Positions 8,286 to 49,200 of a stretch of 64,000 nucleotides of DNA are shown in pieces. The DNA is from Ruditapes philippinarum. Its lineage: Eukaryota. Where the stretch lies: positions 62,001 to 126,000 of the forward strand of contig NW_026856696.1 of the NCBI RefSeq assembly GCF_026571515.1, in the 5' to 3' direction. A program made the position numbers and the translations under genes. The notes under the pieces were generated by a model, which saw nothing but the letters and a program-made list of their open reading frames with translations, made no database searches and was not told the DNA's origin. Position 1 is the first letter of the stretch; each line of letters starts with the position of its first letter.

Positions 8286-10239
8286 TCAATTTACACCAAT
8301 CATGTTGTTACTTTCACATAAAATGAGTCTTTCGGTCAGTAATTTGTATTTAATGTCTTCAGGAAGGTCTTCAAATAAATCATAACATTCTGATTTTTCA
8401 ACATCTTCATCAGCAGCTGTAATGTAGCATGTTCTTGCAGTCCGACTTAAACCCATTAGTCTAACAGACAAATTCATATTAAGTCTAAGTCTTCCACTAA
8501 AAACACCGTAACCAAACTTGCAAACACTTGAGATAGCTTCATCGGTGATCTCTGCGTATCTACATTCAAGAGCTTTATGCAAGATTAAAAGGCAATTAGC
8601 AGCGTATTTCCGAAGATCATTGGCAGTAGTGTACTCGGAATTAGTGCCTTTGACGCTCATGCGTAACCAATCCCACATGACATTTTTACATCTCGTGATA
8701 AAAATTGCCACTTGATATTCTTCCGCTATCAACGCTAAACTTAAAACATTGCTACCTGAAATGAAATTTGCAAATTGAAATATAATCTTAATGTGAATCT
8801 GATAGAGGAGCAAACTGATTTAATATATCATGCTAACTTCAAAACAGCAAAACAAATAATGGCTGGGCGACTCTAGCAAAGGCAATAGAGACAAGAAGAA
8901 AAAATAAATAATCGTATTTTGTCTTGTCTGTTGGCTAGCAACAATATGCCGCTTGACATGCGTGCAGCGGACAATGTCAAAATTTGTTTCGAACAACAAC
9001 TCTTTCTAAATGTTGTTAAAACTAAGTAGGATTGTTTCTGGCATAAAAGGTTTGTAAAATTGTTCGAAGAATTCCATTCCATTAACTCTGGTTGCGATGG
9101 CAACCAAACAACCAAAAGAAAAAACTTCTTCTCCAAACATCAAGGGCTAAAGCTAACATATTTGATATGTAACGTTTTCTAGTCAACCTCTACCAAGTTT
9201 GTTGAATTATAGCTTTAAGATCAAAGTTCAGGTGCATGGTTTTCACTTATATGTATGTAGAGAAATCCTTAAAACCTGCAAGGACTTGAGCTTAGATATT
9301 TGGTATGTAACAATGTCCGGTAGGTATGTATAAAGTTTGTTTAAGAAACAGCCCTGATCTCGACATTTACCCTGCATGCTCCGGGGGTCATAGGGTTTCT
9401 TTATGTGTGTATAGTCAAAACAATTCTTCTCCTGAAACTTCACAAGCTAAAACTTGCCATGAAATATTGTAAAGTTGACCTCTTTCAACTTTCAAGTTTG
9501 CGAAAATTATATCATTTGAAAGATATCAGAAAATCTAGATTTTAATGCTGGGAAATACATATTTGTATTTTCAGCTGCAGACAACATTTAAATACACAGT
9601 TGCAGACGAAGAATTGAATTGATCCAGTGACCTACTTTATTAATTGAGAGGTACAATATTGAAATTTGAACTACAAGCACAGTTTCAAATTTGATTTATT
9701 TTATATCAATTCACCTAGATTTGTATCCAGTACAGCTATGGAATTTGGACCATACCCAGAACTTTAGGGGCTGATTCAAACATTGATATCAATTGAACTA
9801 CTTTATTACCGACTGACGTACTTTTTATCTCACCTGAGAATTATATGTCTTGTTTAGACTGCGTTTCTAAGGTGAGCGATATGGGGCCTTTTGACCCTCG
9901 TGTATATATATATCCATAAGGTCACAAAGGAGCAAATTGATTTAATAGCATAGCAACTTCAACTCACGTGAGATTTCCTTTTGAACCGCCGGATGTAGAC
10001 ACAGCAAAAATTCTTTAAAGTCGTCATATTTCTTTCCAGCTAACTTCACTTCACGTTCTTTCTTCTCTATAAAATTATGATCAAACATAGCTTTGAATAC
10101 TGGAGAAGCATATGTCAGTAGGTTTTCAGAGACGAATAGTATTTTTCCATCATCAAACAATAGTTTTAATCTCGTCTGTGCAATGTCCTGTCTCGGTAAA
10201 GCATTTGGGTATCACATCCTCTCCATTTTCTTCTGCCAT
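8286..10239 (-). pseudogene. BTB/POZ-domain gene, two exons, frameshifted near the N-terminus
   Basis: Exon 10239-9968 (donor c|gtgagt) and exon 8755-8286 (acceptor tttcag|gt) join as ...LTYASPVFKAMF...FKEFLLCLHP...EISR-SNVLSLALIAEEYQV, a typical BTB. The ATG frame (MAEENGEDV...HCTD) and the BTB frame (LKLLFDDGK) are out of register; total 742 nt = 3n+1. Confidence 0.7.
8915..9903 (+). mobile_element. Decayed Helentron-associated (HINE-like) satellite-bearing element in the BTB intron
   Basis: Diverged units resembling 25945-27477 (ctaccaagtttg, agcttagatatttgg) and the family 3' end aggtgagcgat...ggggccttttgaccct at ~9870-9900. Left boundary approximate. Confidence 0.55.
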
Positions 10240-12372
10240 ATTTTCAACGTTTGATCCTCCTAATAATAATATCCGTTCGACAAATAAATTTGATTACATG
10301 TACGACTAGTTTAAATATTTGCAATCATTAAATCAATATATTGGGCGCGTTAAAGCTATCGTCTGTGTAACTTCCTGTTCTGGTTCATTTGAGAGTTGTT
10401 ATATCGTCTCCATTTTCTTTTTCCATAATTCCAACTTTTAATTGATCTTCTATCAATATATTATTTCAACAAATATATATTGATGGTAAATGTAGATCGA
10501 TTATATTACAAATGTAGATTGTTTGATATCAGTTTATCAATATATATTGGGCGGTTGTACATAGGGGACAAATACGAGTTCAATTTACAAACGTCATAAA
10601 AGTGTTATAGAACTAGTAGTAGCAGTTAGTGGTAGCCACTAGTGTTGGTGAAAGTGATGGTGGTATTAGTAGTCCTTTTAAGTATTTGTAATGAAACTAA
10701 AATATGTCAGAGGGATGATACTTTTACCTGTTGTGTGTATATAAAAAAGGGTTATAAGAGTTTATATGTGTATGCACCAGCTTGATCCTACGTGCGGGAT
10801 ATTTTACCAGGGACTAGCTTGTATCAACTATTACCCCAGGTTGATTCTCTGGGTTAATTTCATTTATGACTGGGTTATAATTACCACACCTCAAATACCT
10901 TAGCCTGAACTGTTTTCTTAGAAGCGCATGGTAACAAATCATAAATGCAAATTAAAATGATATTGGTTTGATTCTAAAAACTGATCGTGTGCTTCTCCAA
11001 TGTAGAATTATAGTGAAGTGATTATTTGAAGTCGCCTACGTAACTAGCCTCGTCGAAATTGGAAAAACATCTACTACATGTTAATCTTATTTATCTCGCT
11101 GTCGATACGTTTAATGTGGTTTTTTTAAACAAATGATAATAATCTGAAAAATAAAGAAATGTTTTATAGATTTTAGGACACTATAAGACCATTTTGATAA
11201 CATAGATACACTTTGAACTACTCTATATATCACCTTGGTTCGGGTCATATTCTTCCTGCCCTGTGTAATTCTGATTGCAATAATGACACTATATCAAGCA
11301 CCTAGGCAAGATGGACATAATATGTAAATTAATAACACAAAATTTTAAAGATAAAACATTTACAAGTATTCATATATACATGGAGAAATTAGTATGTAAT
11401 ATATTTTATCTTTCTAGTGGTAGTATATCTACAATGCTTTGTGAAATTTGATGAACAAGATGAACAATATGCGCCTTTTCAAGTTTTAAATTTAAGTGAA
11501 GGAAATATTATTTAACACATTACAAATTTTATGCTTCATTTTATTTTCATTCAATTATCTGACAAGTTTCTGTTGAAGTACAAATGTATATAATATGCCC
11601 TGATTCGGTATCTTTTGTATTTTACCATACCGATCAATAATGAGATTTTAATTATGTCTCTACCTAACAGTCTTGCATGTTATCATTTTGTCGACATTTC
11701 TTTTTAGCACATTGTTATCGCATTTGTCATTTACGTTCCGCATGAAAAGTCAAAACATAATACACGAATATTATGTAGTCTTTGAAATGTTACTTGTTTT
11801 ATATGATACAGCATATTTTTTTAAAGCTCAATAGTTTATAGTGAATATGGACTATGTTTAATTGTATCAAGAAGTGGGCGTTTTTTAAAAATATTTTCAA
11901 GAGAGGGAAATGTTTACTAACAATGTTTTTAGCGTTGCGTTCAGCAACTACAATTAAAATCAGTCAGCCCATCACAAAAATGAAATAATCTGTATGCTAG
12001 TAAAACAAATTCCAAACGTCGTGCGCTGTTTTTTTCTTTGCCATCGATATCCAATGTAAAAAAACGGAGGGTATTTTTTTTTTATTTTTACCCTGTCCAA
12101 AGATGTCGGGTATGACTTTATTTAACGAGATAGCTCATTAAACCAACACTTAAATAGTCAATGAGGTTCTCATTTAAGAACAAAATAATTTACATTCATG
12201 CAAACAATGAAAATACAAAGAAGTGATTTTGTGCTTCTAGCCGTTAGAACTTAATGTGTATGACTTGTCAACAGTTAAATGTTTTATGTATTTGGGTGTT
12301 CTTAGTTTGTTTTCTTGTAGCGCAATTAACATGTGTATCATAATAACACATAGTCACTCACGCATGCACTTG

Positions 12373-13850
12373 TCAAACTTTTCTATGAACAGTTGTGAAG
12401 TTCTTGTGTTCAACTGCTGAAATATCCGCTAAAATCCGCTTTATCCTGCGAAGTTCATTAACAATTTTTTCTATGTCGCCGTGTATTTTTGCGCTTAAAT
12501 AATCGCTCACGACTTTAAGAACATGCGCTAAGGATTCACAATGGCTTTTTGCAAATTCTGGGGACTTTGGGACCGACAAGTATTCACTTGTGAGTATGAG
12601 GTTAGCACTTGAAACAAAGTTCGGCAGGTTTTTGACAATTGAACTTTACAGATAAAAAGTTAAGAACTGCAATAACACATTCGTTAACCGTTGGTTCAAG
12701 GCTTTTGCTGTCGCAAATCTCTAATGTGATGAAAAATGCCAGTTTTAAGGTAAAAAGGAACTAATATGACCTGCAAATGCCCGCCATTTATTTGCTCTAA
12801 AACAAATTTCAAAACCATATAGGCTTGTCTGTGATTTGTGTGTTGTTCTTTGCATGATGCTCAATTCTGTGTCATACGTAGATATCTCCAACCTTTACAT
12901 TCGTCCCTTTTTCCTGGTTTAGGAAACAGAAATACTTTATGAGTGCACTTAAAATTTAGTTCGTTGTTTGGTGAATCTGGCTCAAGTTCCAGAAATCGGA
13001 TGGAAATCTAATTCAATTTCCAGTCCAGGCTCTATTGGAGTTCTATCCGACTTAAAGTGGTTTGTGTTCTGTGTCTGGATTCATGTGACTAAAACATTTT
13101 CTCCAATTCATTTCCCTCTCAGCCAGTGGAATGTGGTAAAGTCGTTTTTGTTTGAGACTTTGTAGTTTAAAATAAACTTGCATTCTTTCAAAGTTGTGTC
13201 TCCCTCTATTAAACACATTCTGATACCATTCAGATTCTTCTGCATCGTTAGGCATCCAAAGAAAATTTAACTTTTTTGTGATGTATGTCTTCCAGTTCGA
13301 GTTCAGAGTTTCCTACATATTTTTGTAACTTAAGCGTTCCAGTACCCTTTTGGATAGAACAGTATTCGCACCCTTTGGAAGGTGAACAAATTCTTTTTTT
13401 GCATTCATTTTTAATATTATCAAATAACTTTTTATTAAAACTGTCTAGCACTGTTTCACTTTTTATCTCTTTGCTTTCTAACTCCTTAGTATTACAAAAT
13501 ACCTGCGCGCATCCCTTCTAAATTGCAAATGTGTGCAGGGTCCGTGCCAAGAAAAGCCGGTTCTCTTGAGGTGAAACTGCAAGGTAATCGAAACTCGATA
13601 CCACTTGTAGTTATTCTCGTTTGTTCCGTCATACTCACCCGCATTGATCAACTCTAGATATCGCGAAATCGTCATTAATTTTCTTGTAGTGGTGTAACAA
13701 AGCGTTTTTATTTAAGCTCTGACAGAGCTACAGAGATATCTTTTACTTGTTCATTTTCATAATTCACACAACATTTAGAAATCAAATTTTTCAACAAAAA
13801 ATGTTCCATTGTGAACAGGTAAAACGCCAATGTTTTCAACGTTTTTATGC
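12373..13850 (-). pseudogene. cGAS-like receptor (cGLR, Mab-21 family nucleotidyltransferase) pseudogene, intronless, many frameshifts and stops
   Basis: Across frameshifts: FAISRVDQC-GSMTEQTRITTSGIEF-DYLAV (GS...EFD catalytic motif, ~13575-13670), LEIELDFHP (third acidic strand), VFLFPKP...GWR-ISTYDTELSIMQ (~12850-12940), HRQAYMVLKFVL...HISSF-YLK, LPNFVSSANLI. These occur in canonical Mab-21 order. Boundaries approximate. Confidence 0.8.
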
Positions 13851-14099
13851 GTGAATTTCACAAACGTTTAAGAAAATCTATCTTCATGCAAACATCACTA
13901 ATAACGTAAACTGATATATCAATAGACCTCTTGTTTGTAAATCTACCGAAATAAACCGAATAAATAATTAAGTTTCGTATTTCCGTCTATATACAATGTA
14001 TCAAGAAATTGTTGTTGTTGTTTTCTAAATAAGTGTGGCAATCGAGTAGTTTTATACACTCATATATTGATAAATGCGAATTATTTACATGTTTAAAGT

Positions 14100-14450
14100 T
14101 TAGGCGATGTCTCTTCATTGTATTCCATATGTATTCATGATTTTTTACTTATCCGGGGTTTTAACACCCTTTTATTGAAAAGTCATCAATCCTGACCAGC
14201 TTTAATTTATAAACAAAACAGAGGTTGATATGCTAGACTTCCTGAAGAATCTTTCAGAATTATAAATAATTGTTCCGTGAGTATTTTGTGGGTTTTAATA
14301 AAATCACCTCTAAAGTGTCTATCTTTCAAACTACACGTGTTCAACTGTTTTAAACGATCTTCATTATCCAAGCTTGATAGTTCAGGAACAATAAACTTCC
14401 GAACTCACTCCAAACATTGATATCTTTGACATAGTATCATCCCTGATTGA
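14100..14450 (-). mobile_element. CR1/L2-clade LINE, decayed 3' end of ORF2
   Basis: Minus strand reads KDI...RKFIVPELSSLDNEDRLKQLNTCSLKDRHFRGDFIKTHKIL and later IWN, matching the CR1 ORF2 C-terminal pattern (LVPELxxLSYEDRLxxLxLxSLxxRRxRGDMIxxYKIL). Confidence 0.65.
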
Positions 14451-15017
14451 AGAGCATGCTATATACTATAATATTAAAAGTCTAACGTATGTAAATCAGT
14501 ATTTTAAAAAAAATCACGCATCAGTAAACACCACAGGTGCTTGAAACAATTTTTTTAAAGTTTTATATGGGCTATATACTATTATATCTTTATATATATA
14601 GACCGGTTATGTAAAATAATTGATTATGTGACTAGCGCCTGTGGTAAACACTACTGGCTATACCTACTTTTATGAAACGGATTTCATTTTTGTTTATATC
14701 TTCGATCACAATATGCTGATCTTTGCAAAAAATATCTTACACGCTATTATCACGCATGGCGTACATTGCAGAAATTTACAAATTTATTCTTGTCTGAATC
14801 CCAAATAGTTATTAGAAATATTTCTAAATATTTGTATTCTGTAAATATAATTAGAAAGTAGTTTTTACAAAATTTCAAACAAGTTCTATTATGAACTCAG
14901 TTGTATTTTTTACAATGGTTTGTACTTTAATTTATGTATGCTCATTGAAAAAGCCATGTTTATTATTTCGATAGATAAGTCGTACATATGCTTTAAACAT
15001 AATAGTACAATTCTGCC

Positions 15018-19624: not shown

Positions 19625-22454
19625 ATGAATGTAGAGGAACTCAAAGATTTGCCAGGATATAAAGCCATACTGAAGGCAGTCCTACAGCAACAGATTCAAG
19701 TGCTGGTAAATATAGGCTTAGTTAGACTTTAAAGGGACTCGACTGAGGTTTTTTTTGACATGATGGAACTGGAAATAATTTTTCGAGATATATGTTTCAT
19801 TTTATGTATAGACTAATAACTTGTGTATATTGTCTCATTCTGTTTTTCCATTGTGAAAAATGACCCAAAAATTGAAAAGCGTTTCGATGCTGATCACTTA
19901 AATTGGGCTAAGAATAGCACAAAAATACAATTTCAGTTTACTTCTAATTTTATTTCTTAATACATGTATTTCTTTTACACATCTTTCTGGTTAAAGTGCC
20001 CAGCTGATCTATGTAAGAATCTCAAATTTTATTTTTTTATGGTTTTGTACCTCAGTGGAGTTCCTTTAACTTCGAGATGATGTTTTCTGTGAGATTTTTT
20101 TCACAAACTAAGATGATAAGATCTATGTTATTTTGTTTTTAATTTTATATATAGAGGCAACTGGTACTGTTTTTTTTAAATATGAAGAAATCCATGTACT
20201 AAAAGGCTGTTGGTTTCTATGCAGTAACTTATCATTGTTCAATGTTGCAACAACTCACTGTATTATCTGTATTTACATGTATACACAAGTTCAAGTTCAA
20301 CCCTTTATCAGTTTTCTCTTAGTAAGAAACTATCTGTATTTCATTGAAAAAAAAATTGCGTAACATAGTATGATATAATGCAAGCTTTTGGTACCTTACT
20401 AATTTCTAATCTTTGCAAAAGTTATTATATTTAATTTCAGGTTGAGCAACTAAGTGAACAGACGGGTGAGGAGACAGTGGTGTTGTCTGCCAACATAACT
20501 GAAGGCACATTATCTCACCTTGGTTCAGAATATGGGAAAACTTTCTTGGAGAAAGAACAGTCTATCAAATCAAAGTTCCTGGGATTCTGCTTGAGAAGTA
20601 TATAGTTTCTACTTCTTATTTTTGTTTCTATATAAAAAATATACTTGTTTTTTGTTATCTTTTTCTTTCTTTAAGGGGTTTGGAGGGGTTTACATGGTAT
20701 AGAATCCTGATTTTCTAGAAAAACTTAACAAAAACTTGATTTACATGTATGTTTCAATAAAACAATTGTATGCTGTTAATTTTAACTTTGATTGGCCATT
20801 GATATAAATTTTTTGCAAGCATTAATTTTTTAGACCACAAAAACTATAACTAGCTTGCAATATTTCCTTAATCATGTATGACCAAACCTATTACAGTTTC
20901 AGTTTATCTTTGGTCTGAAATGTAAATAAAACTTTGTCTATAATGTATGTGAAACATGGATTATAAATTAATGTTTATAAAACATGATGGTATAATATAG
21001 TATGTATAAATTAATGAATTATCTTCTATAAATGTATTTGAAACATAGTCTATGATGTTTACGAAACATGGTCTATAATGTTAATCAAACATGGTTAACA
21101 ATGTATATGAAACAGGATCTATGATACATGTACATGTATATACAGAACATGATCTATGTTGTATCTATGTGTTTGTATGAAACATGGCTTGTGACTTCAT
21201 TTTTAAATACTTGTAGAAGTAAATTTGATTTCATACCATTACATATTTTATTAATCTTCAGAGAACATGACACCCACCAATGATGAAAACATTTTAAAGG
21301 AGGCTGTAGTTACTAAACAGAAGAGAAAGTTGAGTATTTCAAGTGACAGCAGCTGTAAAGGTTCTAAATCAAAATCAGCTAAACTATCACTTGAGGATCG
21401 AACATATAGTCCTGTAATGCAACAGCATGCTATAGGGATGTTCCCGGACCTTAGTCGTGCCACATCTGACTACCTGCACAAACTGAACGAAACTGTTGGT
21501 CAGGATGTTATGAGAAGTGATGCTTCAGACAATTTATTGCAAGAAAAAGATAGCAAAATAGGTCAGTTTGCATTAAATGACCATTCTTTGTCTGACCTTA
21601 ATCCGTATAAAAATAACGTAAATTACGGTAAAAGTGGGACTGGTCTGGATATGTCTATTGTAAAGATGGAACCAAGTAATGATGGTATGTACTCTAATGA
21701 CTCTACTTACTCTGAAAATGACAATGCACACAAGGTTACCTCTCATTTATCAGATTTTAACATTATTGATGCAAACAACAGGAACGCCAAACAATTAGAG
21801 TTGGACTGGAATCAAAGCTTTGCCAAAGGTTTCAATGAAAATGACAGCGCTTTTAATAATAGTCTTAGTTCTAGTAATGGAGAATTTTCCACCGGAGCTG
21901 GTCAGATGTTGGCACGTCCACATAGAACGTACAAATGTGATTTCTGCGACAAGTCATTCCGTGAAAAGACAAATTTGCGTGTCCATGTACGCACTCATAC
22001 TGGAGAAAAACCTTTCAAGTGTTTTCTTTGTGGAAAAGAATTTGCGCATAGTTCAAACTTGAAACAGCACGAGAGGGGTGTCCATAAGTTACCTCCTACA
22101 GTACCTCAATATAAACAACAGTTTTACACAGGTTTAACAAAAATTCAGGAATTAAGCCAAAGTCAGTCAGAAGCCTCTTTCTTTGATAGTTATAATCAAC
22201 CAATGTTTCCAGGCCCGCAAGGGATGGTTTCAGGTGAAAGGAACGGGACTGAAGGACATCTGGTAAAGGCTGACGTTAAGACTGAAAAAAATGTAGATGG
22301 TGAAAATTCAGGGCATCCTCAAGAAGGAGATGACATTCAAACAGAAAACACTCTGGAGGATGAAAATTCAAGCCAAAATATTCTGAATAATGAAACATGT
22401 GCAAGCTCGGATAATGTTGTCGGGGAATCTTCCGATGAAATTGATAGACTATAA
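19625..22454 (+). CDS. C2H2 zinc-finger protein (two fingers) with an unnamed ~80-aa N-terminal domain, ~476 aa
   Basis: Exons 19625-19705, 20441-20597, 21262-22454 (GT-AG, phases 0,1). [52 protein letters not shown]; NLS-like KQKRK. Confidence 0.88.
20935..21190. repeat. Degenerate ~22-bp minisatellite (tgaaacatggtctataatgta) in the ZnF intron
   Basis: Recurrent aaacatg core at short spacing. Confidence 0.55.
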
Positions 22455-23179: not shown

Positions 23180-24287
23180 ATCAACAGTAAAGTTATATTG
23201 CTTCCATTATTATATGGTTTATTCCTGAAAAAGTTGTAACATAGAATGTCTCTGATATTTAATGCACATGAATAATGTACGTAAACAGAATAAAATGTTC
23301 CAGGACAAAATATTATTTTGCTATTTTAAGTAGGGTTTTATCCGTTTATAATGATTTTGTGCATGCACCATTGGCTTTTAAGGCAATAAATTACCATATT
23401 TATTTCATACAAGCATTTTGGAAGCATACAGTTTTAAAATTCAAACAATAATTTTGCATCAGATATTATAGCTTTATACACTTTAAGATAAATCTTTTAC
23501 AAGTCTGTTTATGTATAAATGTGCATGTTAAGAAGATTAAGATTGAGAATTAACTTATTAGCTACAAATTCACTTACTTGTAAATAAAACTGCATGTATA
23601 ATTGAATAAAATTGATTTATTGATAAATGAAATTATTTTTGTTTGTTAGACATTTAAAGATATACTATAAGAAAATATTGATAATTGCTACACAGTCTAT
23701 TTGTGAATATGAAAATAAGCATGTTTTGACTTCTTACAAAGTGCATTTTTGCATATGTCATGTTTAAAATTCTACACACTATAGGACTGTGGTCACAATA
23801 TGAATATGTCAACAAAAAAAACTGGCAGTTTTTTTTAAAGACCAGCATTACTTAAGCTGTTAGATGGGAACCCAGCATCCTAGATATAGTTTACTCATTA
23901 TTTTATTAAAATTAGACATATTCAGCAAGAATTTCATAGATTTCAATAAATTTCTACGATTAGAATATTTTACTTAAGAGCATAGTATATCTTTAATTGT
24001 GTTTATGTGTTCATTGATGCATGTGTGTATATAAACTATGTTTATTTATGATACCTCAAGACCTTATTTGATAACTGTTCACATAATCTTCATTTGTATA
24101 TTTTTAAAATCAGCTTCAGTGGTAATTTGTCATAATGGTTAATTTTGTCTAATTAGGATTGAACTTTTCATGTAACATAATAATTATCAAATTAGTTTGT
24201 CTAGAGTTTCTGCATTTACCCAACACAGCTTTACATGTTTTTTTCTTGAATTGGATTTTATACTAGGTGCTTTTAATGATATACATA

Positions 24288-24391
24288 TGAGCCGCGTCAC
24301 GACAAAACCAACATATGTGTTCGGACCAGCATGGATCCAGACCAGCCTGCGTTGCAAACCCATTATGTCAGTTTTGTCATGGCGCGGCTCA
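24288..24391. mobile_element. Palindromic MITE, internally deleted copy 2
   Basis: Same termini tgagccgcgtcacgacaaaacc / gttttgtcatggcgcggctca with the centre missing. Confidence 0.85.
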
Positions 24392-25944
24392 TATGTATTC
24401 ACCATACCTAGGTACTTGAAATGATATATACACCATACTTGGATGCAGCTGCTTAAAGTGATGTGTAGAAACTCATGTGTCTGAAAATTAATGATTATGT
24501 GAAATTTCTTTCAAATATTTTTCTTTTGTGTTGCAACTTTTACAACTTATGTTAACTGTCAGTTGTACAGAAACAGCAAATGTTGCTAAAAGTCCAGCTG
24601 AAATACTTGCAAATTTGTAAGGCTACTTCCAGCCTAGAAGAATTATTTGAAGCCAAATTTTGTACCACTTAACTCAAATGATACTACTGTCTCGAGCTGT
24701 ATGCTGGTTTTGACATTATATTAGATAGATTTCGAATCCTGACAGTCTCCAGTTTGGATTCTTTAATGAAAGGAAACAAGGAAATTTGATAGTTTTACTA
24801 AGGTCCTGGCTTGTGCCTGAAATAATGCACAAAGTTGCACCTTCATCCAACTCACCATATGACTTAAAAATATCAATGTTACTTAAAACACAACCCAAAC
24901 AATATATTTTTAATAAGTATATTTTCTGTTAATATATTTTTTATATTTTTTTTTCTTAAATAGGTTTTAATGAAATTATTTAAAGGCCTGTTGCTATACA
25001 TGTTAACCTTATAAATTTTTAATCCATTTTGAGATACATGTATATTTCTTATTAATAATCTATTCATTCTTAATTACATCAAGGTTCAGTGATAAGCTTT
25101 TGCAACAATTATAGAGCCAGGCCAGCCTGCATATCTGTAGTCTGACCAATTTTTAGATGCCAGTTTGAAAGAGCATATCTCCTACACACATGAAGGAATT
25201 TTAATGAAACTTCATAGAAATGTTCACCACTATGAGAAGCTGTGTCATCTGCATGAACCAGTTCTCTAGGTTAAAGGTTAATGTCACACTTAGAGTTCAT
25301 TGAAAAATGCTTCTTGAGAGCCGAACTTCTACATTCATTGGGGGATTTTAATGTAACTTGGCACAAATGTTCACCATTGTAAGGCTTATTGCGCACATAA
25401 TTCAGGTCTCTGCTACCAAAGTCAAGGTCACATAGATAGGTCAAAGTTTGTGTATGGGGACCATTTAGTCATCATTTTTTAATGGATTGTAACACAAATG
25501 ATAACTATCATGACTACAAGTGTGACTCATGTAATTTAGGTTAATATTTGCAAGGTCAAGGTCACTAGCCATGATAAAATATCCAGATATTTTCCAGATA
25601 TTGCTCAGCATATCTCCTATATGCATATCTATAATGCCCACATCTCTGCCAAAAGCTTTTGTGACAAGGTGTATTTTGCGATAATTTTGCCCCTGTTTTT
25701 ATATTTAAATCCCTCATACTTTGAATGGACTGCTCCAAATTGAAAGCAGGGTAAATTCTGCAGGTTAATGGTTAAGTTATGAAATAATAAAGTCAGCAGT
25801 CCAAGATGAAATATAGTGACTACCTGTGCATGCACAATATCCGTCTGCTTTAATTCACCTATGCACAGCCTCTTAGCAAACTTGATAAAGTCCTCATACA
25901 ATTTGTTTAATTGTCCAAACTTATTGTTAATTCTGAAAGTTTTT

Positions 25945-27477
25945 AGCTCACCTGTCACAAAGTGACAGGGTGAGCTTTTGTGATCGCTTTTCGTCCGGCG
26001 TCCGTCCGTAAACTTTTACTTTAAATGACATCTCCTCATAAACCACTAACCAAATTTCATCCAAACTTCACAGGAATATTTCTTTGGTGGTCACCTTTGA
26101 AAATTGTTCAAAGAATTTAATTCTATGCAGAACTCTGGTTGCCATGGCAACCAAAAGAAAAAACTTTAAATATCTTCTTCTAAAAAACCCAAAGAGCTAG
26201 AGCTTAGATATTTGGCATGAAACATCTTCTAGTGAGTGTCTACCAAGTTTGTTCAAATAAAAGCCCTGGGGTCAAAATTGGCCCCACCCCAGGGGGTCAT
26301 TGATTTTCCCTATAGGCATATAGTAAAAACTTAAAAAATATTCTTTTAAAGAACCCAAAGAGCTAGAGCTAAGATATTTAGCATGAAACATCCTCTAAAT
26401 GGTGTCTACCAAGTTTGTTCAAATAAAAGCCCTGGGGTCAAAATTGGTCCCGCCCCAGGGGGTCATTGATTTTCCCTATATGCATATAGTAAAAACTTAA
26501 AAAATCTTCTTTTAAAAAACCCAAAGAGCTAGAGCTAAGATATTTAGCATGAAACATCTTCTAGTGAGTGTCTACCAAGTTTGTTCAAATAAAAGCCCTG
26601 GGGTCAAAATTGGCCCCGTCCCAGGGGGTCATTGATTTTCCCTTTATGCATATAGTAAAAACTTAAAAAATATTCTTTTAAAGAACCCAAAGAGCTAGAG
26701 CTAAGGTATTTAGCATGAAACATGTTCTAATGGATGTCTACCAAGTTTGTTCAAATAAGAGCCCTGGGGTCAAAATTGGCCCGCCCCGGGGGTCATTGAA
26801 TTTCCTTATATGTGTATAACAAAAACTTAAAAAATCTTCTTTGAAAAAAACCAAATAGCTAGAGTTTAGATACTAAGCATGAAACATCTTCTAGTGAGTG
26901 TCTACCAAGTTTGTTGTAATAAAAGCCCTGGGGTCAAAATTGGCCCCGCCCCGGGGATCATTCATTTTCCTTATATGTGTATATTAAAAACTTAAAAAAA
27001 TCTTCTTTGAAAAAACTCAAATAGCTAGAGTTTAGATATTAAACACGAAGCATCTTCTAGTGAGTGTCTACAAAGTTTGTTCAAATAATAGCACTGGGGT
27101 CAAAATTGGCCCCGCCCCAGGGGACATTGATTTTTCTTATATGTGTATAGCAAAAACTTATAAAATCTTCTTTGAAAAAACCCGAATAGCTAGAGTTTAG
27201 ATATTAAGCATGAAACATTTTCTAGTAATTGTCTACAAAGATTGTTCAAATAAAAGCCCTTGGGTCAAAACTGGCCCTGCCCCAGGTGTGTCATTGTTTT
27301 TAACTATATGTGTAAAGAAAAAACTTGACCAGCTGGACCTTAGATGTTTAGCATGAAACATCTTCTAATGGGTGTCTACCACGTTTGTTCAAATAAAAGC
27401 CCTGGGGTTTAAAATGGCCCCGCTCCGGGGGCCTATATACAGGTGAGCGACTTCAGGGCCATCATGGCCCTCTTGTT
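25945..27477 (+). mobile_element. Helentron-associated non-autonomous element (HINE-like) carrying ~8 copies of a ~166-bp satellite
   Basis: T-run insertion site; subTIRs agctcacctg (25945) / caggtgagc (27440); 5' hairpin cctgtcac-aaa-gtgacagg; gtcc microsatellite; tandem units at ~166-bp spacing; 3' hairpin agggccat-c-atggccct then cttgtt. Confidence 0.85.
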
Positions 27478-32690: not shown

Positions 32691-35600
32691 TTGAAAAGAC
32701 TTGCCACTTCTCTTTACTTATCTACAAGCTAATATAAACAGTTACTCTGCTTCGAAAATGTATAATGCCTAATTCTACGTATGCATGTATGAAAACTGTT
32801 TTTATTAAACTAGCATTTTGTTTTATTTTCTGATCTTTTTTAGCTGCCTTCAGCGCATGAACAACATCAGATGTCACGTGTTATGGCAATGTGTCTTCTG
32901 CTTCTTTGAAGGTTTTATTGTTAATGGTGTTATAAATGTGGTACTCGTTGCCCTCGAGAAACGTTACTCACTACCAAGCTCAAAATCAGGCCTTATAGGT
33001 TAGTGTCATTTTTTACAGAAAAATCAGGCCTTTTATGTTAGTTTCATTTTTACAGCAAAATCAGGCCTTACAAGTTAGTTTCATTTATACAGCAAAATCA
33101 GGCCTTATAAGTTAGTTTCATTTAAACTGCAAAATCAGGCCTTATAAGTTAGTTTCATTTAAACTGCAAAATCAGGCCTTATAAGTTAGTTTCATTTATA
33201 CAGCAAAATCAGGCTTTATTTGTTAGTTTCATTTATACAGCAAAATCAGGCTTTATTTGTTAGTTTCATTTATACTGCAAAATCAGGCCTTATATGTTAG
33301 TTTCATTTCTACAGCAAAATCAGGGCTTATATGTTAGTTTCATTTATACAGCAAAATCAGGCCTTATAAGTTAGTTTCATTTATACAGCAAAATCAGGTT
33401 AGTTTCATTTATACAGCAAAATCAGGCCAGTCACATCATTCAGAACATAGAACATTAGAATATTTGACTAATTTTGATTATGCTGTGATTATAGCAAAAG
33501 CGGGTTTAAAAAATACAATATCTTTATAAGAACTTAGAAGGTTATATCAAGGATGTATAATTATTAAAAACATAAATTGTAATATTTTTTTGTTGAAATA
33601 TTGTTGATCTCTGCTTAACATTAAAATTTTGTGAAAGTCTTAACAAAATGTTTTCCAATGTTGATTTGGTTAGTAGAACGTTTTTTTTTAAATATTCCAG
33701 CCAGCGCCAATGACTTTGGGTCAATTATATGCAGTGTTCTGGTCGGATATTTCGGGGAACAGCGGCACAAACCAAAACTCATGGGTACAGGGGTTCTCAT
33801 AATGGCGGCCGGCTGTTTTGTTTTCTCTTTGCCACATTTGATAGGCGAAAATTATCGTTACACTTTGTCTGCAGGTAAATATGTTACACATAATAACTTA
33901 CTGCTGCTTCATTCTTAAAATTTCATTTTAAGATTTTTATTAATCAAGAAGTACCATGAACTTACTTCACAAGAATTTGCTTAAATTTGAACGTGTTGGA
34001 AGCTATAAGCTTATCAAACCATTCCCAGAACCAACCAGTTCCGAGTTAAGTTTTTTTTGCTCATGGAAACAACGGCTTGCCTTTGACAGGGTTTGCACTC
34101 ACGCGGTCAGCAATCATTAGATAACTAGTCTGACGCGTTGACCACTTGGCCATGCCGCCACAAATTGCACTTCTTGAGTGTAAAATACTAGTATTTGGAT
34201 TGCAAGGACTACTGTATGTTATTTATAGATCTACTTCATAGCTGTATACTTAAGGAGTTTTTATTTAGTTATTTATTTCATGTACACATATTTCTGCTTC
34301 GAACAGGTGCAGACAATGTCACGCAAAACATGTGCGCTGTAAGTGGTAATGAAACAGGTAACTGCGGTAGCACGGAGTCGGATTACGTACCGGAAAGTTA
34401 TACCGCGTCGTACGCTTTACTAATGCTTGGTAATGTTTTACTGGGTATAGGGGCGTCACCAATGTTCACTATTGGACTTTCATATATTGATGAAAACTGC
34501 AAGGCGAAACTTACAGCTTTCTATATCAGTAAGTTTATATACGAACTTCGTATGATAACAATTCCACAAAAAGAGAACATCCTCTTTAAAAAAACGACAC
34601 GTTATAAATTATACACCGTATTGATATTTTTTCTCACTAAGTTAGAAAAGAATTTCAAATCTCATTATCTTTATTTCAAATCAGGTTATCTTTATACATA
34701 TCGCTAAATGATTTGAAATTTTTGTATTGCTCAGTATAGAAAATGATTCAGGCTTTTCTTAATAATAAATTTTATAAATGCCAGGGATCGTCCAAAATCT
34801 AATTTTATTTATTTATCTTTTTTATTTTAAAATAAAAATGGTATACCGTTAAACTACATGTATATGCAAGCATTAAAATGAGTTATGGTTACTTTTTAAA
34901 AATTGTCTAAATATCTTTAATATTCAGGTTGGACATTTTGCGCTGCTGCAGTTGGAGTTGCTATTGGATATGTCGTTGGTGGTCAAACATTAAGCATTTT
35001 CGTTGATATTAATAACGTTGATCCTGCAAGGTAAATTGATTATACTTGATATATTGCACCTTGTATTTGTACCTTTATCTTGCCGGAACCGAAAGAGAAA
35101 AGAAACTACCACAAGTATAGAACAGAACAGAACTTTTATTTTCTAGACTTACAAATGAGTCGTGTCACGACAAAACTAACATAATGCGTTTGCGACCAGC
35201 ATGGATCCAGACCAGCCTGCGCATCCGCGCAGTCTGATCAGGATCCATGGCATGCTGTTCGCTATCAGTTTGTCTACTTGTTATAGGGTTTGTAAGCGAA
35301 CAGGATGGATCCTGATCAGACTGCGCGGATGCGCAGGCTGGTCTGGATCCATGCTGGTCGCAAACCCATTAAGTTGGTTTTGTCATGACGCGGCTCAAAT
35401 GTACATTGTCTTGCTAACATGCAACGAATGCATATATAATCTCATTAATATATGTATGGTTAGTGTCTATAATGAAGATAAAGTGTACAATTAAAAGGCA
35501 AAAACTTCCTAAAAGGATAAACCACAATTGAGAGTTCAAAATTGAATTCCTGAGTTTCAAAGCTTCTTTGATATACCAATGTAACATCTATTAATACATT

Positions 35601-38600: not shown

Positions 38601-41600
38601 TGAATGTTCTATTGTAGGTATTATTACAATACCTGGATCCGGTGGTGGTATGTTACTTGGCGGGTATCTTGTGAAAAAGTTTAAGCTCAAATGTCGCGGC
38701 ATCATCCGGGTGTGTGCTGGTTTTATGTTGGCAGCGTTCTGCTTTGGTCCATTCATGTTAGCACACTGTCCTAGTGACCCACTGGCTGGTCTGGACCACC
38801 CTTACACCGTAGAGTAGGTACTGGTATAAATAACATTTGTCAGGTACATTTTGTATTTATACAGATTGTTAGAATAACAACACTCGAATTGTACTGGCTG
38901 ATAAATAATGTTGCAATGTTCATATTGCTACTATCATTTTGAATGATTTAAATCTGATTTTTTTATTATCTTTTGATAAAAGTAACATGAAGAAAGATTT
39001 TTTTCAGCGATTTTCATGGCGTCAGATTTGATGTTCGGCAACATCTGGCAACCTTCTGCTACTTCATTGCGGTTTAAAACTAAAATCTAGTTGTTATTGC
39101 GTTTAAATTGTGTATTTCTTAAAACAGGAAGTCAACTTCCGGACTGGTGTCAAGTTGCAATACAGACTGTGGCTGTACAACTGAAGGTTTCGAACCAGTC
39201 TGTGTCGAAGATATTGTCTACTTTTCTCCGTGTCATGCCGGATGTTTGTCGTCGGATACACAGAATGGTGTCAAAGTAAGAAATGTATAAATATACAATT
39301 TAAAACTGCTTGTATGAGTTTCAAGTACTTATGTATGAAGTGGGGCGTCCGTGGCCGAGTGGTTAAGGTTGTTGACTTCAAACCACTTGCCCCTCACCGC
39401 TGTGGGTTCAAATCCCGACAGGGACTTTGGATTCTTTCATGTGAGGAAGCTATCCAGCTAGCTTACGGAACGTCGGTGGTTCTACTCAGGTGCCCGTTCG
39501 TGCCTGAAATAATGCACGGAAGGGCACCTGAGGTCTTCCTCCACCAGTAAAGCTGGAACGTCGCGATATGACCTATACTGTGTCGATGTGACGTAAACCC
39601 CCCCCCCCCCCCCAAAAAAAAAAAAATGTATGAAGTCTTAATACCATTCATTTTGATAAACGTTTTATTATGTTTGAAAAGTTGTATATACACATTACCG
39701 TCACATACGAGCAATGTAGCCCGCAAATTCAACACTGGAGATGTGAAAAAATAACAACCTCCGTTTGGCATTTCCACTACTTCGTGGCAATAGTGTCTAT
39801 GTAGTGTGTATTTTCATATTTCTTGTATTCATGTAATATGTATCATTATTAGAATAATTTATTGTTTTATTTGCTATTCACGTCCTCAACAAAATGTGAA
39901 CAATCTCTGCTTCATGAGCTTTATGAACAGGCTTTCCAGTTATAAGGCTGATGGTAGTCTGGCGGGGGTTCTGTAACAATATCTTCCGTGTGCACCACCT
40001 ACATTTCTTTAGAGATTTTACTCAAACTTTCATAGGATGGTATTTATAATGTACACTGGGTCTTATACCAGGAATTTAAGATCTGGTCATATTTGGGAGA
40101 ATAATTGCACTTCAATTTATAACAGTTTATAAGTTGGAAGAAAAAACTTTGTTCTGAGTCAATTTCCTATCACGTCCTTCATGTGTGCTATATATAATAA
40201 ATATCTTTAACGGTATTGTAATAAACGTTAGATGATCACATGAGGGCATATAATTCCCTATTATTTATTTGTATAATAAGTTTAATAACCTAAGGAAAAC
40301 ACAAAATTGCATGTTTAGAGTAACAGATATCTAACCACTTCCCGTTGCAGAGCTATTTTAACTGTTCGTGTGTGTATAGTGCTACAGCCAATATGACCAA
40401 CGAGTACAGTGACCTAAGTATGATTCCAGGATTGTGCACTGGCAAGTGTGACTGGGTATGGGTTTTCTGTGTTCTATTCCTCGTCGTCATGATTCTAACT
40501 TTCGCCACGATGTCACCCGGGGTAACTGCTCTATTTAGGTATACATTTTTTCTTCTAATTCTTATATGTATAAAAAGGTTTAGGGAAATGATATATGTCT
40601 AAACGCAGCCGGTAAATGTAGTTTTGTTATATTTCCTTCGTAGATTTATTAGTATTTAAACTTTAATATTGTACAGAGCTAAGAATGGAGGATGAAACGA
40701 CTTTAAATCACTTTAAAGTATAAAAGCAAAGCTAACATGTTGTTATTAGTTTTCTTGATCTTAAAAATCATTGATGTTTAATGAAGCAACCTGTATTTTA
40801 TTTTGAAGATCAGAAGGTAGAGTGTACTGTCATTTTAAAACGTGATTTATTTGTTTCAGGTGTGTACCAGATAAGCAGCGATCTGTGGGTATTGGTGTTA
40901 ATCTACTGTTTGTTAGGCTTGTAGGTATGTATATATATATGAGCCGCGTCACGACAAAACCAACATAATGGGTTTGCGACCAGCAAGGATCCAGACCAGC
41001 CTGCGCATCCGCGCAGTGTGATCAGGATCCATGCTGTTCGCTTACAGACCCTTAAACAAGTAGAGAAACTGATAGCGAACAGCATGGATCCTGATCAGAC
41101 TGCGCGGATGAGCAGGCTGGTCTGGATCCATGCTGGCCGCAAACCCATTATGTTGGTTTTGTCGTGACGTGGCTCATATATACTTTAGTACTTACTGTTC
41201 GTGAGACTGGTTGCTGTATAATCAGATGTTATCAATTGTCCTTACGGCAAAATTTGTAGGTTCGATAATTTGAGGTACCATTGCGTCTAAGAAGCGGATC
41301 CATGACCGAGTGGTAACGCGATGATATAGTTATCAATGGATCGCAGGTTCAAACCCCACAAAACCACTAACAATATGAATGGTCTTCTGATGTGACTTAC
41401 AAAAGGAAGACGCGTGTATCGGTGATCTTCACCGGACATGTCAAAGAACCAGGATAGTCTCTGGAATGGGACATCTGCAGATTCCGTGCACTTTTCCGAA
41501 AAATAAAAAAATAAAAATTCTTCAGGGTTTTTTTGTCACAAACGAAATACGATAGTTAATAAACCGAAAGAATATCATAACCTCAATTGAAATGAATACA

Positions 41601-42257: not shown

Positions 42258-44140
42258 AACTACCATACTTGAGTGATATTCGTAACTACCTCATTTACAG
42301 ACAATTCGTAACTACCTCATTTATTGACGATTCATAACTATCTCATTTGTTGGTGATTCGTAATTACCTTGTTTAGTGACTAGTCTTAACTACCTCTTTA
42401 ATTATAAATCAAGTCAAAACTACCTCTTTATGTAACAAGTCTAAACTATCTCATTATGTTACAAGTATTAACTACTTCTTTATGTAACAAGTTTTATCTC
42501 ATTATGTAACGAGTCCTAACTACTTCATTATGTCACAAGTCTTAACTGCCTCATTTTGTAACAAGTCTTAACTACCTCATTGTGTAACAAGTCTAAACTA
42601 CCTCATTGTGTAACACGTCTTAACTACCTCATTATGTAACAAGTCTAAACTACCTCATAATGTGACAAGTCTAAACTATCTCATTATCTAACAGGTCTAA
42701 ACTACCTCATTAAATGACAAGTATAAACTATCTCATTATGTAACAAGTCTAAACTACCTCATTAAATGACAAGTCTAAACTATCTCAATTTGTAACAAGT
42801 CTAAACTACCTCATAATGTGACAAGTCTAAACTATCTCATTATCTAACAGGTCTAAACTACCTCATTTTGTAACAAGTCTAAACTACCTCATTGTGTAAC
42901 AAGTCTAAACCATGTCATTATGTAACACGTCTTAACTACCTCATAATGTAACAAGTCTAAACTATCTCATTACGTAACAAGTCTAAATTATCTCATTATG
43001 TAACAAGTTTAAACTACCGCATTATGTATCAAGTCTTAACTACCTTATAATGTAACAAGTCTTAACTATCTCATTATGTAACAAGTATAAACTACCTTTA
43101 TATGTAACAAGTCTAAACTATCTTATAATTTATTAGGACGTAACTTCCTTATTATGTATCAAGTCATAACTACCTCAGTATGTAACAAGTCGTTACTACC
43201 TCATTGTGTATCAAGTCTTAACTATCTCATTACGTAACAAGCCTTAACTACCTCATTATGTTACAAGTCTAGACTACCTCAGTATGTCACAAGTCTTAAC
43301 TATCTCATTATGTTACAAGTCTAGACTACCTCAGTATGTAACAAGTCTTAACTATCTCATTATGTTACAAGTCTAGACTACCTCAGTATGTAACAAGCCT
43401 TAACTACCTCATTATGTTACAAGTCTAGACTACCTCAGTATGTAACAAGTCTTAACTATCTCATTATGTTACAAGTCTAGACTACCTCAGTATGTCACAA
43501 GTCTTAACTATCTCATTATGTTACAAGTCTAGACTACCTCATTATGTAACAAGTCTTAACTATCTCATTATGTTACAAGTCTAGACTACCTCAGTATGTA
43601 ACAAGCCTTAACTACCTCAGTATGTTACAAGTCTAGACTACCTCAGTATGTAACAAGTCTTAACTATCTCATTATGTTACAAGTCTAGACTACCTCAGTA
43701 TGTAACAAGTCTTAACTATCTCATTATGTTACAAGTCTAGACTACCTCAGTATGTAACAAGCCTTAACTACCTCATTATGTTACAAGTCTAGACTACCTC
43801 AGTATTTAACAATTCTTAACTATCTCATTATGTTACAAGTCTTAACTATCTCATTATGTTACAAGTCTTAACTATCTCATTATGTTACAAGTCTTAACTA
43901 TCTCATTATGTTACAAGTCTAGACTACCTCAGTATGTAACAAGTCTTAACTATCTCATTATGTAACAAGTCTACCTACTCTATTATGTGACAAGTTTTAA
44001 CTACCTCACTTATTGACAAATTTTAACTACCTTATTTATTGCCAATTTTTTTAAATACTTTTTTATTGGGAATTCGTTATCTACCTTATTGTGCGACAGC
44101 TCTTAACTATCTTATTATTTTGACAATTCTAAACTATCGC
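42258..44140. repeat. ~1.9-kb 26-bp minisatellite with a 52-bp dimer core, downstream of the SLCO stop
   Basis: Unit taactacctcattatgtaacaagtct; agactacctc recurs at 43271, 43323, 43375 (period 52). Confidence 0.92.
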
Positions 44141-45078
44141 ATTTTTAATTTTTCGTGACATACGCATGCACGTATATAGTTTGTGCTTCATACAAGGAAA
44201 AAAAAGCTTGCTGATATGGAAACATTATCATTGCATCCAATATCAATTTGAACTTGAATGATCATTTATCAGGAAGTATTTCATTCAGATATTTGATAAA
44301 TTAAAAAAAAAAAAAACAATAGAAAAAAAAAATATACGCACCATTGTGATCTTTAATCACGTAAATATCTTATGACGTAAATATCATATCATTGAATACC
44401 TGATCACGTGAATATCGTATCACGCAAATATCATATCACGTCAATATCTTACCAGTTCCCCAAAATACATAACAAAACACGAGTGGCTGATACATCATCA
44501 ACATGGATTAGTTCTAATTCGTTGTTTGTAACATTTATATATGAGAACCATAATTTACAAAATTGCAATATTTTTGCTCAACGACGAACACATTAGCAAC
44601 GCAAACGCGCAGAAGATATTAGAAAATCTGCATATCTTTTAAGATAATGAAATCAACGCATACACATTCAAGCCAAGCCAAGTCAATGTTTTTATTTTTT
44701 TATTTTCGATAAATCATAAAGGATAATAAACGTAATATATTGTTCTAATTAAAAACCGAAATTTCGTTTACTTGTATTTACCAGTATAACAAATAATCAG
44801 AATATAACCTAGCAATGTACATTTATACTGATTAATGATGTTTAAAACATTATTTAATATTAAAACATTTATACATCATAAAATGGTATTTAAAATAATA
44901 ATAAAAATAAAGCAATTGTGTATAATTCGATTTTCAAATGGGGGTTTCAACTGTAATATGATTTAAAAGATATTTACTGTTTTATGTATGTTTTACTTAT
45001 TAATACATATTAACTGAGGGTATTCATGAATGATTAAATGCAATTTGAATGCATGCATTAAAACGTGGTATAATCATA

Positions 45079-45314
45079 TAACCGTGTCATGACAAAACCA
45101 ACATAATGCGTTTGCGACCAGCATGGATCGAGACCAGCCTGCGCATCCGCGCAGTCTGATCAGGATCCATGCTGTTCGCTATCAGTTTCTCTACTTGTAA
45201 TAGACTTGGTAAGCGAACAGCATGGATCCTGATCAGACTGCGCGGATGCGCAGGCTGGTCTGGATCCATGCTGGTCGCAAAGCCATTATGTTGGTTTTGT
45301 CGTGGCACGGCTCA
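45079..45314. mobile_element. Palindromic MITE copy 5
   Basis: Same TIRs, left tip slightly degenerate. Confidence 0.88.
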
Positions 45315-45664
45315 TATAAAGTTCTATCATTGAAATGAAATCCAAACAAGGAAGTATTTGCTGACATGTATAACAAATGTTTGAATAACAAAATGCATTT
45401 AATATACAAAATGTATATCAAATTTTCAATTCGATACGTACGTCTGTTTAAGTCACGTATTCCTTCCTATACAAATTATAAACATTACTGGTCGTGTCCG
45501 TTTATTATCGTTATTATTATTATTATTATTATTATTATAATTAGAAGCATATTATATTACAGTAGATAAGCTGATATACTTTATATAGTCGGTTCATAGA
45601 CAAACAACGCAATAATTCTGGAATACAATATGGATCAAACAAGTGATATATTCTTCCTTATTAG

Positions 45665-46292: not shown

Positions 46293-49200
46293 TTACGAGT
46301 CTGCACTATTACTTAAATGTGGCAACCGTTTCTTAATTTCCTCAGCAGCGTCTTCCCTATGTATATCTATCATTATCTGTTCTAACTCTTTAAATGTTTT
46401 TCCTTCTTCTAACCATTTATCTATAAGTATCCGTGTTGGACTCGACTGAGTTCCTAGCCAACGTATTCTGGCTAGGCTGCATTGCATTTTTTCTGCTAAG
46501 TTTCTGTAATCACCCGCGTCCGAACCAGCCTCGTTATGAGGGTCCAATAGAATTATAAGCTCGTTTATCAGCTCCTCGCGCGGATCCTCTTCTGGTGATG
46601 AAAGAGGCGAACTAAACTGGAATAAAAAATAGAAATGCGTTTTAAAAAAAGAAGAATTTTTTTGATAAGATGAATTCCAACAATACAGTTTTTCTCTGAA
46701 TAAAAATGCATACTTCACTTCTTTTATTTTATAAACCTAGCCCTGAATGATATTTTTATATTCAGATGAAAATGAATGCAGTATCCTGTTAGAAAAACAA
46801 ACCTTTTTTACCATTACATTATACATGTTTATTAATTAGAGTCTATTTAAAATATCTGTGAACAAATATAATTCACTGGATGATACATACCAATGACACT
46901 TGCTCGGCAATTTTTAGTTTAGCAGAGTTATTTTCATCATTGTTCTGGTATGCTTTAATTTCACAAACGATGTCAGTCATGGATGACCTGCTAGGTCTCA
47001 TGATAAAAGTGCAATGAGGATGGAATGCGTGCCAGATCTGTTCAAAAGGTAACACCTGGAAAGTAAATAAACATACAGCAATGTACAAAAAAAACCCCAA
47101 AAACAACAGCAACATACAAACCTGTCCGGTTTCGGCTGACAAGGCATATATTAAAAAAAAACATCATTGGCCTGGCACTCTTGCATATGACCCTGTAGTC
47201 GGTATATTCCGTAAACGTGATAATTATACTTGTAAATCGGTATGAATGTAAATATCAATTTCGTTAAAATGGTGTTTGTTTAAAATCTTTCTTAGCGTAG
47301 TCTGTAAAGGAGCTTTACTTGAAGAATGTATACGTCATCTGGTAGGTTCGAATCCTTTTTCAGGGATTTCTTTTTTCTTTTGTATTCTAATTTTAGAATT
47401 GCCATTCTCTTTAAACTATTGCAAACCTTTTGTTGTATATGAGTGTGTATGTGCGTGCGTGATATCTGTGTAGTATTTTCAATTAATAACTACCTTTATA
47501 TGTGCTAAAGGATATAGGACTGCATAATTACACAAAGAGAACCATTGAAAGATACTGTATTTAAATTAAAATATAAGTGTGTGTGTAGTAAAACGATTTC
47601 AAATTAATTCTTGCAAGCTGAGTTGAAAAAAAATCATACCATGGTGTTGGTAAGGAATCGAACCAGAGACATTCAGACCGGTAGTCCGACATCTATACCA
47701 ATACACCACGCATCACTGACAAGTTAAGTTAGCAAATTTATCGATATATTCGATAGATACTGGTCAGTGTTTATTCAAATGACCAATACGGAAGTTAATG
47801 AAGTGCCAGGTCAATTTTGTTGGACAATACCAAGATCCACTTTTATATCAATACTCACAATGCACAGTACATTACAATGCGCTACACTACTGGTAGAGAT
47901 CTATGCTGTTTTAAAAAATAAAGCACTGTGGAGGATGGACCAATATTTATCAAAATAAGCGAAAACATTGTCACTTGTAAATCCTTTACACTTCATAATA
48001 TAGACTGTAATTTACCTCGGTCCTATCTCCATCGAGATTCCACCCGTCGGACAATTTGGCCATTTCGACCACAACGTCCTGTTCATTGTCTCGTATAATT
48101 AGATCGGTTGTATCGGAAATCCTGGAACGTCCGTCTGTTCTGTTGACAAAGTTCTCAACCTCCTAAATCAATGAAAAAGAATACGTTTTAGCCTGCTGAA
48201 TAATAACCAAGTGATGTTTTGCCCAGCTTCAGGCCTGACTTTCACATAAACTGAACGGGTGCTTAGCTCGTAAATAGACTGCCCGGAGGAACATTCTGGC
48301 TAGACTATACACATATATACATATTTAAATAGCGCACAAAAATGATATAATTATTCCCGTAACCCTGCTGAACCTGTCTTGCTTTAGTCTACAGCAGTTC
48401 ATCGTGAGTATTATTGAAGAAAGAAAGAANNNNNNNNNNNNNNNNNNNNNNNNNNNNNNNNNNNNNNNNNNNNNNNNNNNNNNNNNNNNNNNNNNNNNNN
48501 NNNNNNNNNNNNNNNNNNNNNNNNNNNNNNNNNNNNNNNNNNNNNNNNNNNNNNNNNNNNNNNNNNNNNNNNNNNAAAATACACGAGAAAATAAGTTAAG
48601 ACCAGGAAGTGTGAATTTAATAATTTATACCTATCCCTTACCAAAACTTTATCTTATGTAAATAATTCAAATATTTATTACGTGCTAATATTGATCCAAA
48701 TACATGTATCTATTACGAGCAGATCTATATTGATTCTAGCTTACTTAATACGTACAATGACTTTCTATCTCATGAAAATGTACGTATTTTATTTCACATC
48801 TTATAAAATATAACCACTGAACTTTCAGCGTTTGGACCACGTGATGTCCCATTAGAAATCATTATCGGACCCAATCTTATCAATTTAGCCTCGTTTCCAT
48901 CTTAGATTACAAAACATCTCAACAATGTATAATAACCTCGCAACAAGGTTAGCTTTTAAAAAAGCTAGTAGCGGCTCGCTTCGTAATTTTTTTCCAAGGG
49001 TGCGTTTAAATGTAAAAATGACAATTCTGTTAGCTGAAGAGACTTCAGTGAACATAAAAATTAAAGTGACATAAAGTAATGGAATCAAGTTCTCTCAGTT
49101 TAACAAAGAGGAAAATGAGTATATATGAAGATGCATGTAAACAGATAAAATGAAGTCCCTATGTCTATGCACATTTACTGTATGGCCTGTTGACCTTGAC

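Follow-up and report, generated by a model that had tools for sequence, protein, structure and literature searches.

The cGAS-like receptors (cGLRs) of the Mab-21 family are expanded in bivalves, and Table S1 of PMC9980059, in its available part, lists 247 cGLRs and 9 STING genes for Mercenaria. According to the accessible sections of the same source, cGLRs that sense nucleic acids have an isoelectric point (pI) above 8.5, and other ligands have been suggested for the acidic ones (section 6). As far as the sources at hand extend, a GS loop, an acidic pair and a Mab-21_C lobe are common to Tc-cGLR (7LT2), Sp-cGLR1 (8GJY), the oyster proteins cGLR-07 and cGLR-08 and the clam gene described here, and they also have in common the FPK and W-x-IS strands, the S-Y-Y-L-K helix and the LPN motif. 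The clam gene differs from these proteins in about 85–120 extra core residues, which include conserved Cys groups, and, in contrast to the nucleic-acid sensors, its orthologue is acidic, with a pI of 5.8. It is one more cGLR in a known and very large family.

The gene lies in a window of 64,000 nucleotides from Ruditapes philippinarum, the whole stretch of DNA that was analysed, which has a GC content of 30–38% and a single gap of 146 N. The preliminary description, made from the letters alone, had recognised a fossil of a cGLR/Mab-21 gene behind short and apparently meaningless reading frames. Translation places all of its motifs on the minus strand in the order that it gave, spread over three frames, and its family identification holds by way of an intact orthologue, a Mab-21_C match, an ESM Atlas score and a structural model, which are presented below. 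A phmmer search with one frame of the region, stops written as X, against 1.84 billion representative proteins returned only two matches. One is P0001 (E 5.7e-25), the intact 456-residue product of Mercenaria mercenaria LOC123544576 (XP_045186586.2 and XP_045186585.2; P0001 and P0003), and the other is P0002, a metagenome protein of 152 residues encoded on a 1033-nt JGI/IMG contig. The frameshift-aware alignment that the preliminary description had proposed bears it out: 229 of 433 in-frame codons of the minus strand are identical to P0001 (53%), across 18 breaks, with no intron and no in-frame internal stop. Colinearity with P0001 extends from 13809 down to 12365, and that with P0002 begins at 12818 and reaches the stop; in this 3' third of the gene 144 of 147 residues are identical to P0002. 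The K>T and S>G differences of P0002 correspond to base differences that recur in sequencing runs X2, X7 and X12; therefore P0002 is taken as an allele of the clam gene. A tblastn search with P0001 gives four colinear pieces in the window, three of which sum to E 1e-50 while the fourth has 0.001, and the best piece reaches 130 bits, whereas 50 shuffles of the region gave no score above 25 bits. The homology to P0001 is far beyond chance. The likeness to LOC123544576, which is annotated as an intact "uncharacterized protein" whereas the window copy carries stray letters, is colinear over the full length and comprises the active-site segment, 15 of 22 aligned Cys and the C-terminal lobe.

The features of the gene and its surroundings are as follows.

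12354..13809, minus strand: cGLR/Mab-21-family coding sequence, a single coding exon, 1456 nt within the window
13584..13643, minus strand: GS activation loop and E-x-D acidic pair, cut by +2 and +1 breaks
13509..13537, minus strand: first conserved Cys group (P0001 C82, C85, C90), among three breaks, its placement leaning on the alignment
13359..13403, minus strand: second conserved Cys group (P0001 C124, C129, C132, C135), four Cys aligned
13030..13358, minus strand: long insert in the NTase core (about P0001 136–236) with two further conserved Cys, from the alignment to P0001
13006..13008, minus strand: likely third catalytic acid, Asp (P0001 D243, DFHP motif), from likeness to an x-D-h-h-P strand
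12610..12830, minus strand: Mab-21_C helical lobe (HRQAYMVLK, YLKT, LPNFV), from Pfam on P0001 and the P0002 model
11926..13865, no strand: tract with extra letters relative to other samples, coding sequence plus 3' flank, edges approximate
14024..14035, minus strand: possible, weak splice acceptor of a 5' UTR intron, from the departure of an X2 contig at a T-rich AG

The ATG equivalent to the P0001 start is at 13809, and the stop codon is 12356–12354, in the frame of P0002. A TGA ending at 12373 was rejected as the stop of the gene, being in a shifted frame. With the stray letters discounted, the length is estimated at 471 codons, from a net 43 extra letters in the sum of X2 and X12 contigs and on the assumption that 2 of the 43 lie in the 5' UTR. 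The true excess within the gene would be some 43–45 letters and the protein therefore about 470 residues, and the gene probably encodes an intact cGLR of that size in a single coding exon. Upstream, an X2 contig departs from the window at 14026 beside the T-rich AG, where its depth falls from 23.7 to 0.5, and the loose end has no match in the window beyond one at 40732 that is at chance level (reached in 22 of 100 shuffles). Weak hints of expression come from this departure and from runs X2 and X12, guessed to be RNA, which cover the gene; none of the runs that share words with the window is registered as RNA.

The assignment to the cGLR/Mab-21 family is made with high confidence. In P0001, residues 301–369 pass the Mab-21_C model (PF20266) narrowly, with 25.1 bits against a cut-off of 24.1 (E 1.9e-5); the same model stays under its cut-off in P0002 (E 0.014), and the Pfam search did not find the NTase lobe (PF03281) in P0001, so that the Pfam check on the orthologue supports the C-terminal part of the assignment. 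Pfam searches of single frames, with stops as X, gave a Mab-21 match in none of eight readings, as is expected because breaks come every 25 codons. In the ESM Atlas the best cluster for P0001 scores 0.97, a value that shuffled proteins attain about once in 100; its members, mostly molluscan and 451 residues long, carry Mab-21_C in 51% and Mab-21 in 41% of cases. For the whole of P0001, 28 of 30 matches are Mab-21 plus Mab-21_C, and residues 72–236 taken separately score 0.83, which is a lead only. A model of P0002 (pLDDT 58.5) has Tc-cGLR 7LT2 at the top of 48161 chains (Z 7.0, rmsd 3.2, 98 aligned residues), a place that it shares with other pol-beta-type nucleotidyltransferases (TUT1, PAPD1, NF45 and CdnD) and with a prenyltransferase; this predicted likeness, below Z 8, is consistent with the family. 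Foldseek gave no match with that model, and the full-length model of P0001 (pLDDT 34) gave no useful structural match, its Foldseek and VIA lists being helical noise. PADLOC and NCBIfam returned nothing, and a sequence search of the PDB matched nothing but chance MurF rows. A word-based search with the frame read-through found no homologue, and those with P0001 and with alignment A2 returned P0001 alone; the method is insensitive, and the size of the lineage is not implied by it. A pattern search for related loci in metagenome contigs gave 104 pattern matches, none of which was confirmed. A search of the open literature, with subscription journals outside its scope, found no paper naming the P0001 accessions.

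The segment with the GS loop and the E-x-D pair is the best conserved part of the gene, where 16 of 19 in-frame codons match P0001 50–70 exactly, and X1 and X7 contigs over 13576–13790 are 7 letters shorter than the window, consistently with the frame. Both P0001 (G51-S52, E65-Y-D67) and the window, which has F in place of Y, contain a G[S/G] loop with [DE]h[DE] at 8–20 residues. The strict [QT]GS pattern is absent, as the residue before GS is C (CGS); a KCGS loop occurs in a catalogued cGLR in the part of Table S1 at hand (PMC9980059). D243 is the likely third acid because the order of D-h-h-P, PK, W-x-x-S, S-Y-Y-L-K-T and N-L-P-N matches, by eye, that of cGLRs. It stands 173 residues after the acidic pair, compared with 50–90 in the published motif. 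An alternative, D153, lies 83 residues after the pair, is Glu in the window and comes without family context. Of the full catalytic triad that the preliminary description had ascribed to an ancestor, two acids are clear, and the third follows from the family pattern only. By the alignment to P0001, the FPK motif, the lysine of YLK and D243 are retained in the window.

The second Cys group, to which the preliminary description had drawn attention as part of a long insert, stands in a single unbroken frame with 40% identity to P0001 89–146. Across P0001 71–236, 9 of 10 Cys are kept against an overall identity of 75/159. The cysteines are thus conserved in one other species, Mercenaria, and their spacing suggests a possible zinc site. 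The distinct subfamily that had been proposed is unproven, because just two species have been found and catalogued cGLRs also have long inserts: by our own count in the available part of Table S1 (PMC9980059), the corresponding spacing is about 180 residues in Nematostella XP_001633988.2 and about 300 in Mercenaria XP_045176892.1. No zinc-insert invertebrate cGLR was reported in the open literature searched, from which subscription journals were left aside. A bolder version of this idea is considered improbable: in a conserved clam lineage of cGLRs that the published catalogue overlooked, the sensor would be an insert of some 100 residues, rich in Cys and binding zinc, in place of the basic groove for nucleic acids, and the protein would respond to a danger signal other than nucleic acid by making a cyclic dinucleotide of its own for one of several clam STING paralogues.

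The frame breaks are very likely artefacts. The 2-nt and 1-nt insertions that had been postulated around the active site were recovered independently by realignment, at about 13640 (+2) and 13596 (+1), although the breaks number at least 18, not two. Relative to P0001, 17 of the 18 are extra letters and one is a missing letter, and all five relative to P0002 are extra letters. Such a one-sided result has p 7e-5 under even odds; the alignment penalties favour this bias, and the lengths of contigs from other samples confirm it. Among the 24 runs listed, 20 contain 0.23–0.37 of the window's words (11 studies), and contigs of four runs (X1, X2, X7 and X12) were aligned to the window. Of 583 contig pieces 32 were listed and 30 used, two in the repeat at 14532–14838 being left out, and X1 has no cover over 12599–13153, where its depth is low. 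All 15 listed pieces that overlap the gene, from the four runs, are shorter than the window; against them the window has 155 extra, 8 missing and 107 substituted letters, counts that are not independent, as the pieces overlap one another. An X12 piece at 12314–12907 shows 7 extra and 1 missing letter and an X7 piece at 13244–13528 shows 2 extra letters, in both cases exactly as the protein alignment predicts. Under a fixed rule, five of the seven pieces wholly within the gene fit modulo 3, and the remaining two (X12, 13114–13261) do so only when the break near 13262 is assigned to the adjoining T run outside them, which the sequence permits. The contigs also expose hidden breaks that cancel each other, with 12 extra letters in 148 at 13114–13261. 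A read-through pI of 8.0 was set aside as unreliable, because such compensating breaks leave wrong residues, and a count of amino-acid changes among 16 listed base differences was dropped as a test of selection, several of them adjoining indels.

At least five sites of extra letters (11926, 12029, 12253, 12295–6 and 12993) are lacking in all covering runs, and each of the five listed shared sites lengthens a run of one base. In three pieces of X1 there are 1, 3 and 0 substitutions against 5, 7 and 2 gap letters, and X1 contigs at 14049–14213 and 14715–14900 show no difference from the window. Relative to X2 and X7 the window has extra letters upstream too, 16 in 14138–14325 and 11 in 14689–14900, which may be natural. 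The density of extra letters is about 3% locally, in a patch of 2 kb. Elsewhere the window has unbroken open reading frames of 399 and 391 codons, for which the chance at this break rate is 4e-7; the damage is therefore local. The one-sided stray letters, together with the few substitutions, point to insertion errors in a poorly polished patch of probable long-read origin rather than to decay. Raw PacBio errors are described as mainly insertions of cognate bases in the consulted part of PMC5408847, whereas a table of raw PacBio errors in PMC5964698, as far as available, lists more deletions than insertions with the orientation unstated; the portions at hand of PMC8672642 and PMC5382505 do not settle the direction. 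The likeness to known gene-fragmenting indels of long-read assemblies lies in run-extending insertions that split genes of low-GC genomes (PMC8574707 and PMC5408847, in their accessible parts), and the difference is that the clam patch, unlike scattered homopolymer errors, is nearer to a barely corrected read.

Two observations on the contigs stand apart. In those of the DNA runs X1 and X7 a joint leads from 13185 back to 12186 across 12 intervening letters; to judge from X1 depth, the 13185 side seems to extend over only about 20 letters, and the joint may be a partial duplication or chance. Over 12909–13542, X2, X7 and X12 each show two sequence types, with 0 versus 6 substitutions in 112 letters, 1 versus 6 in 136 and 6 versus 27 in about 290. 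The types, which differ most over the Cys insert, represent a divergent allele or a close copy.

It could be argued that the sequenced individual carries a genuine pseudogene or null allele and that other animals have intact alleles of the gene, as the preliminary description had held. The breaks do stand in the window, dead copies are to be expected in a family so hugely expanded as that of Mercenaria in the available Table S1, and no run exceeds 0.37 of the words, so that an identical haplotype was not seen; there is also a small chance that the gene is allele-variable in the one sequenced individual. Natural decay, however, yields far more substitutions than indels. Here about 45 extra letters stand beside substitutions of roughly 1%, stop codons are absent, the breaks run almost wholly in one direction, the 3' flank has the same excess, and X1 is nearly free of substitutions and yet lacks the extra letters. 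P0002 is open over all five of its breaks, and contigs of all four runs are without the extra letters wherever they cover. An open frame in accurate sequence, named in the preliminary description as the finding that would overturn the pseudogene status, is thus direct for the 3' third and for most of the 5' two thirds is deduced from length arithmetic alone. The pseudogene is accordingly held to be very unlikely, and hardly credible is a damaged paralogue in the window with contigs drawn from a second, intact and near-identical copy. The two sequence types mid-gene (in X7, 27 versus 6 substitutions over 13244–13542) and the short 13185–12186 joint would suit such a copy, but heterozygous animals give two types as well, an X2 contig (11600–12938) spans part of the gene together with the same 3' flank, the depth of X7 is level over gene and flanks, and a second copy is absent from the 64-kb window.

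The other doubt concerns function. An intact protein of the Mab-21 fold could lack synthesis of a STING ligand, as an adaptor or pseudo-enzyme of the Mab21L1, MB21D2 or TMEM102 type, or could sense something other than nucleic acid. The spacing of the strict motif departs from the published one, the orthologue is acidic, neither its accessions nor the two of its motifs that were looked up occur in the part of the curated cGLR Table S1 available (PMC9980059), a single close relative was found with no radiation, and a TMEM102 cluster also scores 0.93 in the ESM Atlas. Against this, conservation peaks in the GS/E-x-D segment, far above the 53% overall, neither D243 nor FPK nor the YLK lysine has been lost, and a KCGS loop and long inserts occur among catalogued cGLRs in the portion of the table consulted. 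This alternative is regarded as rather doubtful, and it is thought somewhat probable, by analogy, that the protein is an active cyclic-dinucleotide synthase. The favoured explanation as a whole, which is considered likely, is an intact Mab-21/cGAS-like orthologue of the hard-clam gene, whose breaks are likely errors of the patch and which likely acts as a ligand-activated synthase upstream of STING. In a mechanism modelled on cGLR behaviour as set out in the available part of PMC9980059, the intact cytosolic protein would bind its ligand in the groove behind the NTase core, would then cyclise two NTPs into a cyclic dinucleotide, and this product would bind a STING paralogue.

The window contains other coding-like sequences and repeats. 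An exon for a ZU5 domain that follows a probable transmembrane stretch (50833–52008, minus strand, Pfam E 2.6e-16) and, downstream of it, a Death-domain exon (46293–46736, minus strand, E 8.4e-8) probably belong to one UNC5-like ZU5/Death receptor gene. On the plus strand there are an exon (21255–22454) that stays open for 399 codons and encodes two C2H2 zinc fingers, an OATP/SLCO transporter exon (34192–34707, E 1.4e-12) and a 7B2/secretogranin V exon (60980–61342, E 3.5e-9). Two protein-like frames of the minus strand have no Pfam match, one of 121 codons (56118–56483) and one of 177 codons (8286–8819), the latter being the nearest coding-like neighbour of the cGLR gene, 3.5 kb downstream on the same strand. 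A self-complementary, MITE-like family of about 250 nt, 81–95% alike, is present at 1094–1349, 24279–24410, 35150–35407 and 40929–41186, with further copies at 45068–45327, 57735–57856 and 58700–58834. Tandem arrays lie at 26159–27326, 32981–33398 and 42278–44068, with units of 166, 37 and 26 nt, and a very high-copy repeat, with contig depth in the thousands, lies just upstream of the cGLR gene (14486–14818).

By itself the gene is one among hundreds of clam cGLRs. It would carry greater weight only if the conserved Cys insert were truly a new ligand-sensing module, the ligands of cGLRs other than nucleic acids being an open question in the accessible text of PMC9980059 (section 6). For bivalve genomes more generally, the numbers of dead immune receptors that enter the birth-and-death argument can be inflated by local error patches in assemblies, and real sensors can vanish from annotations through them.
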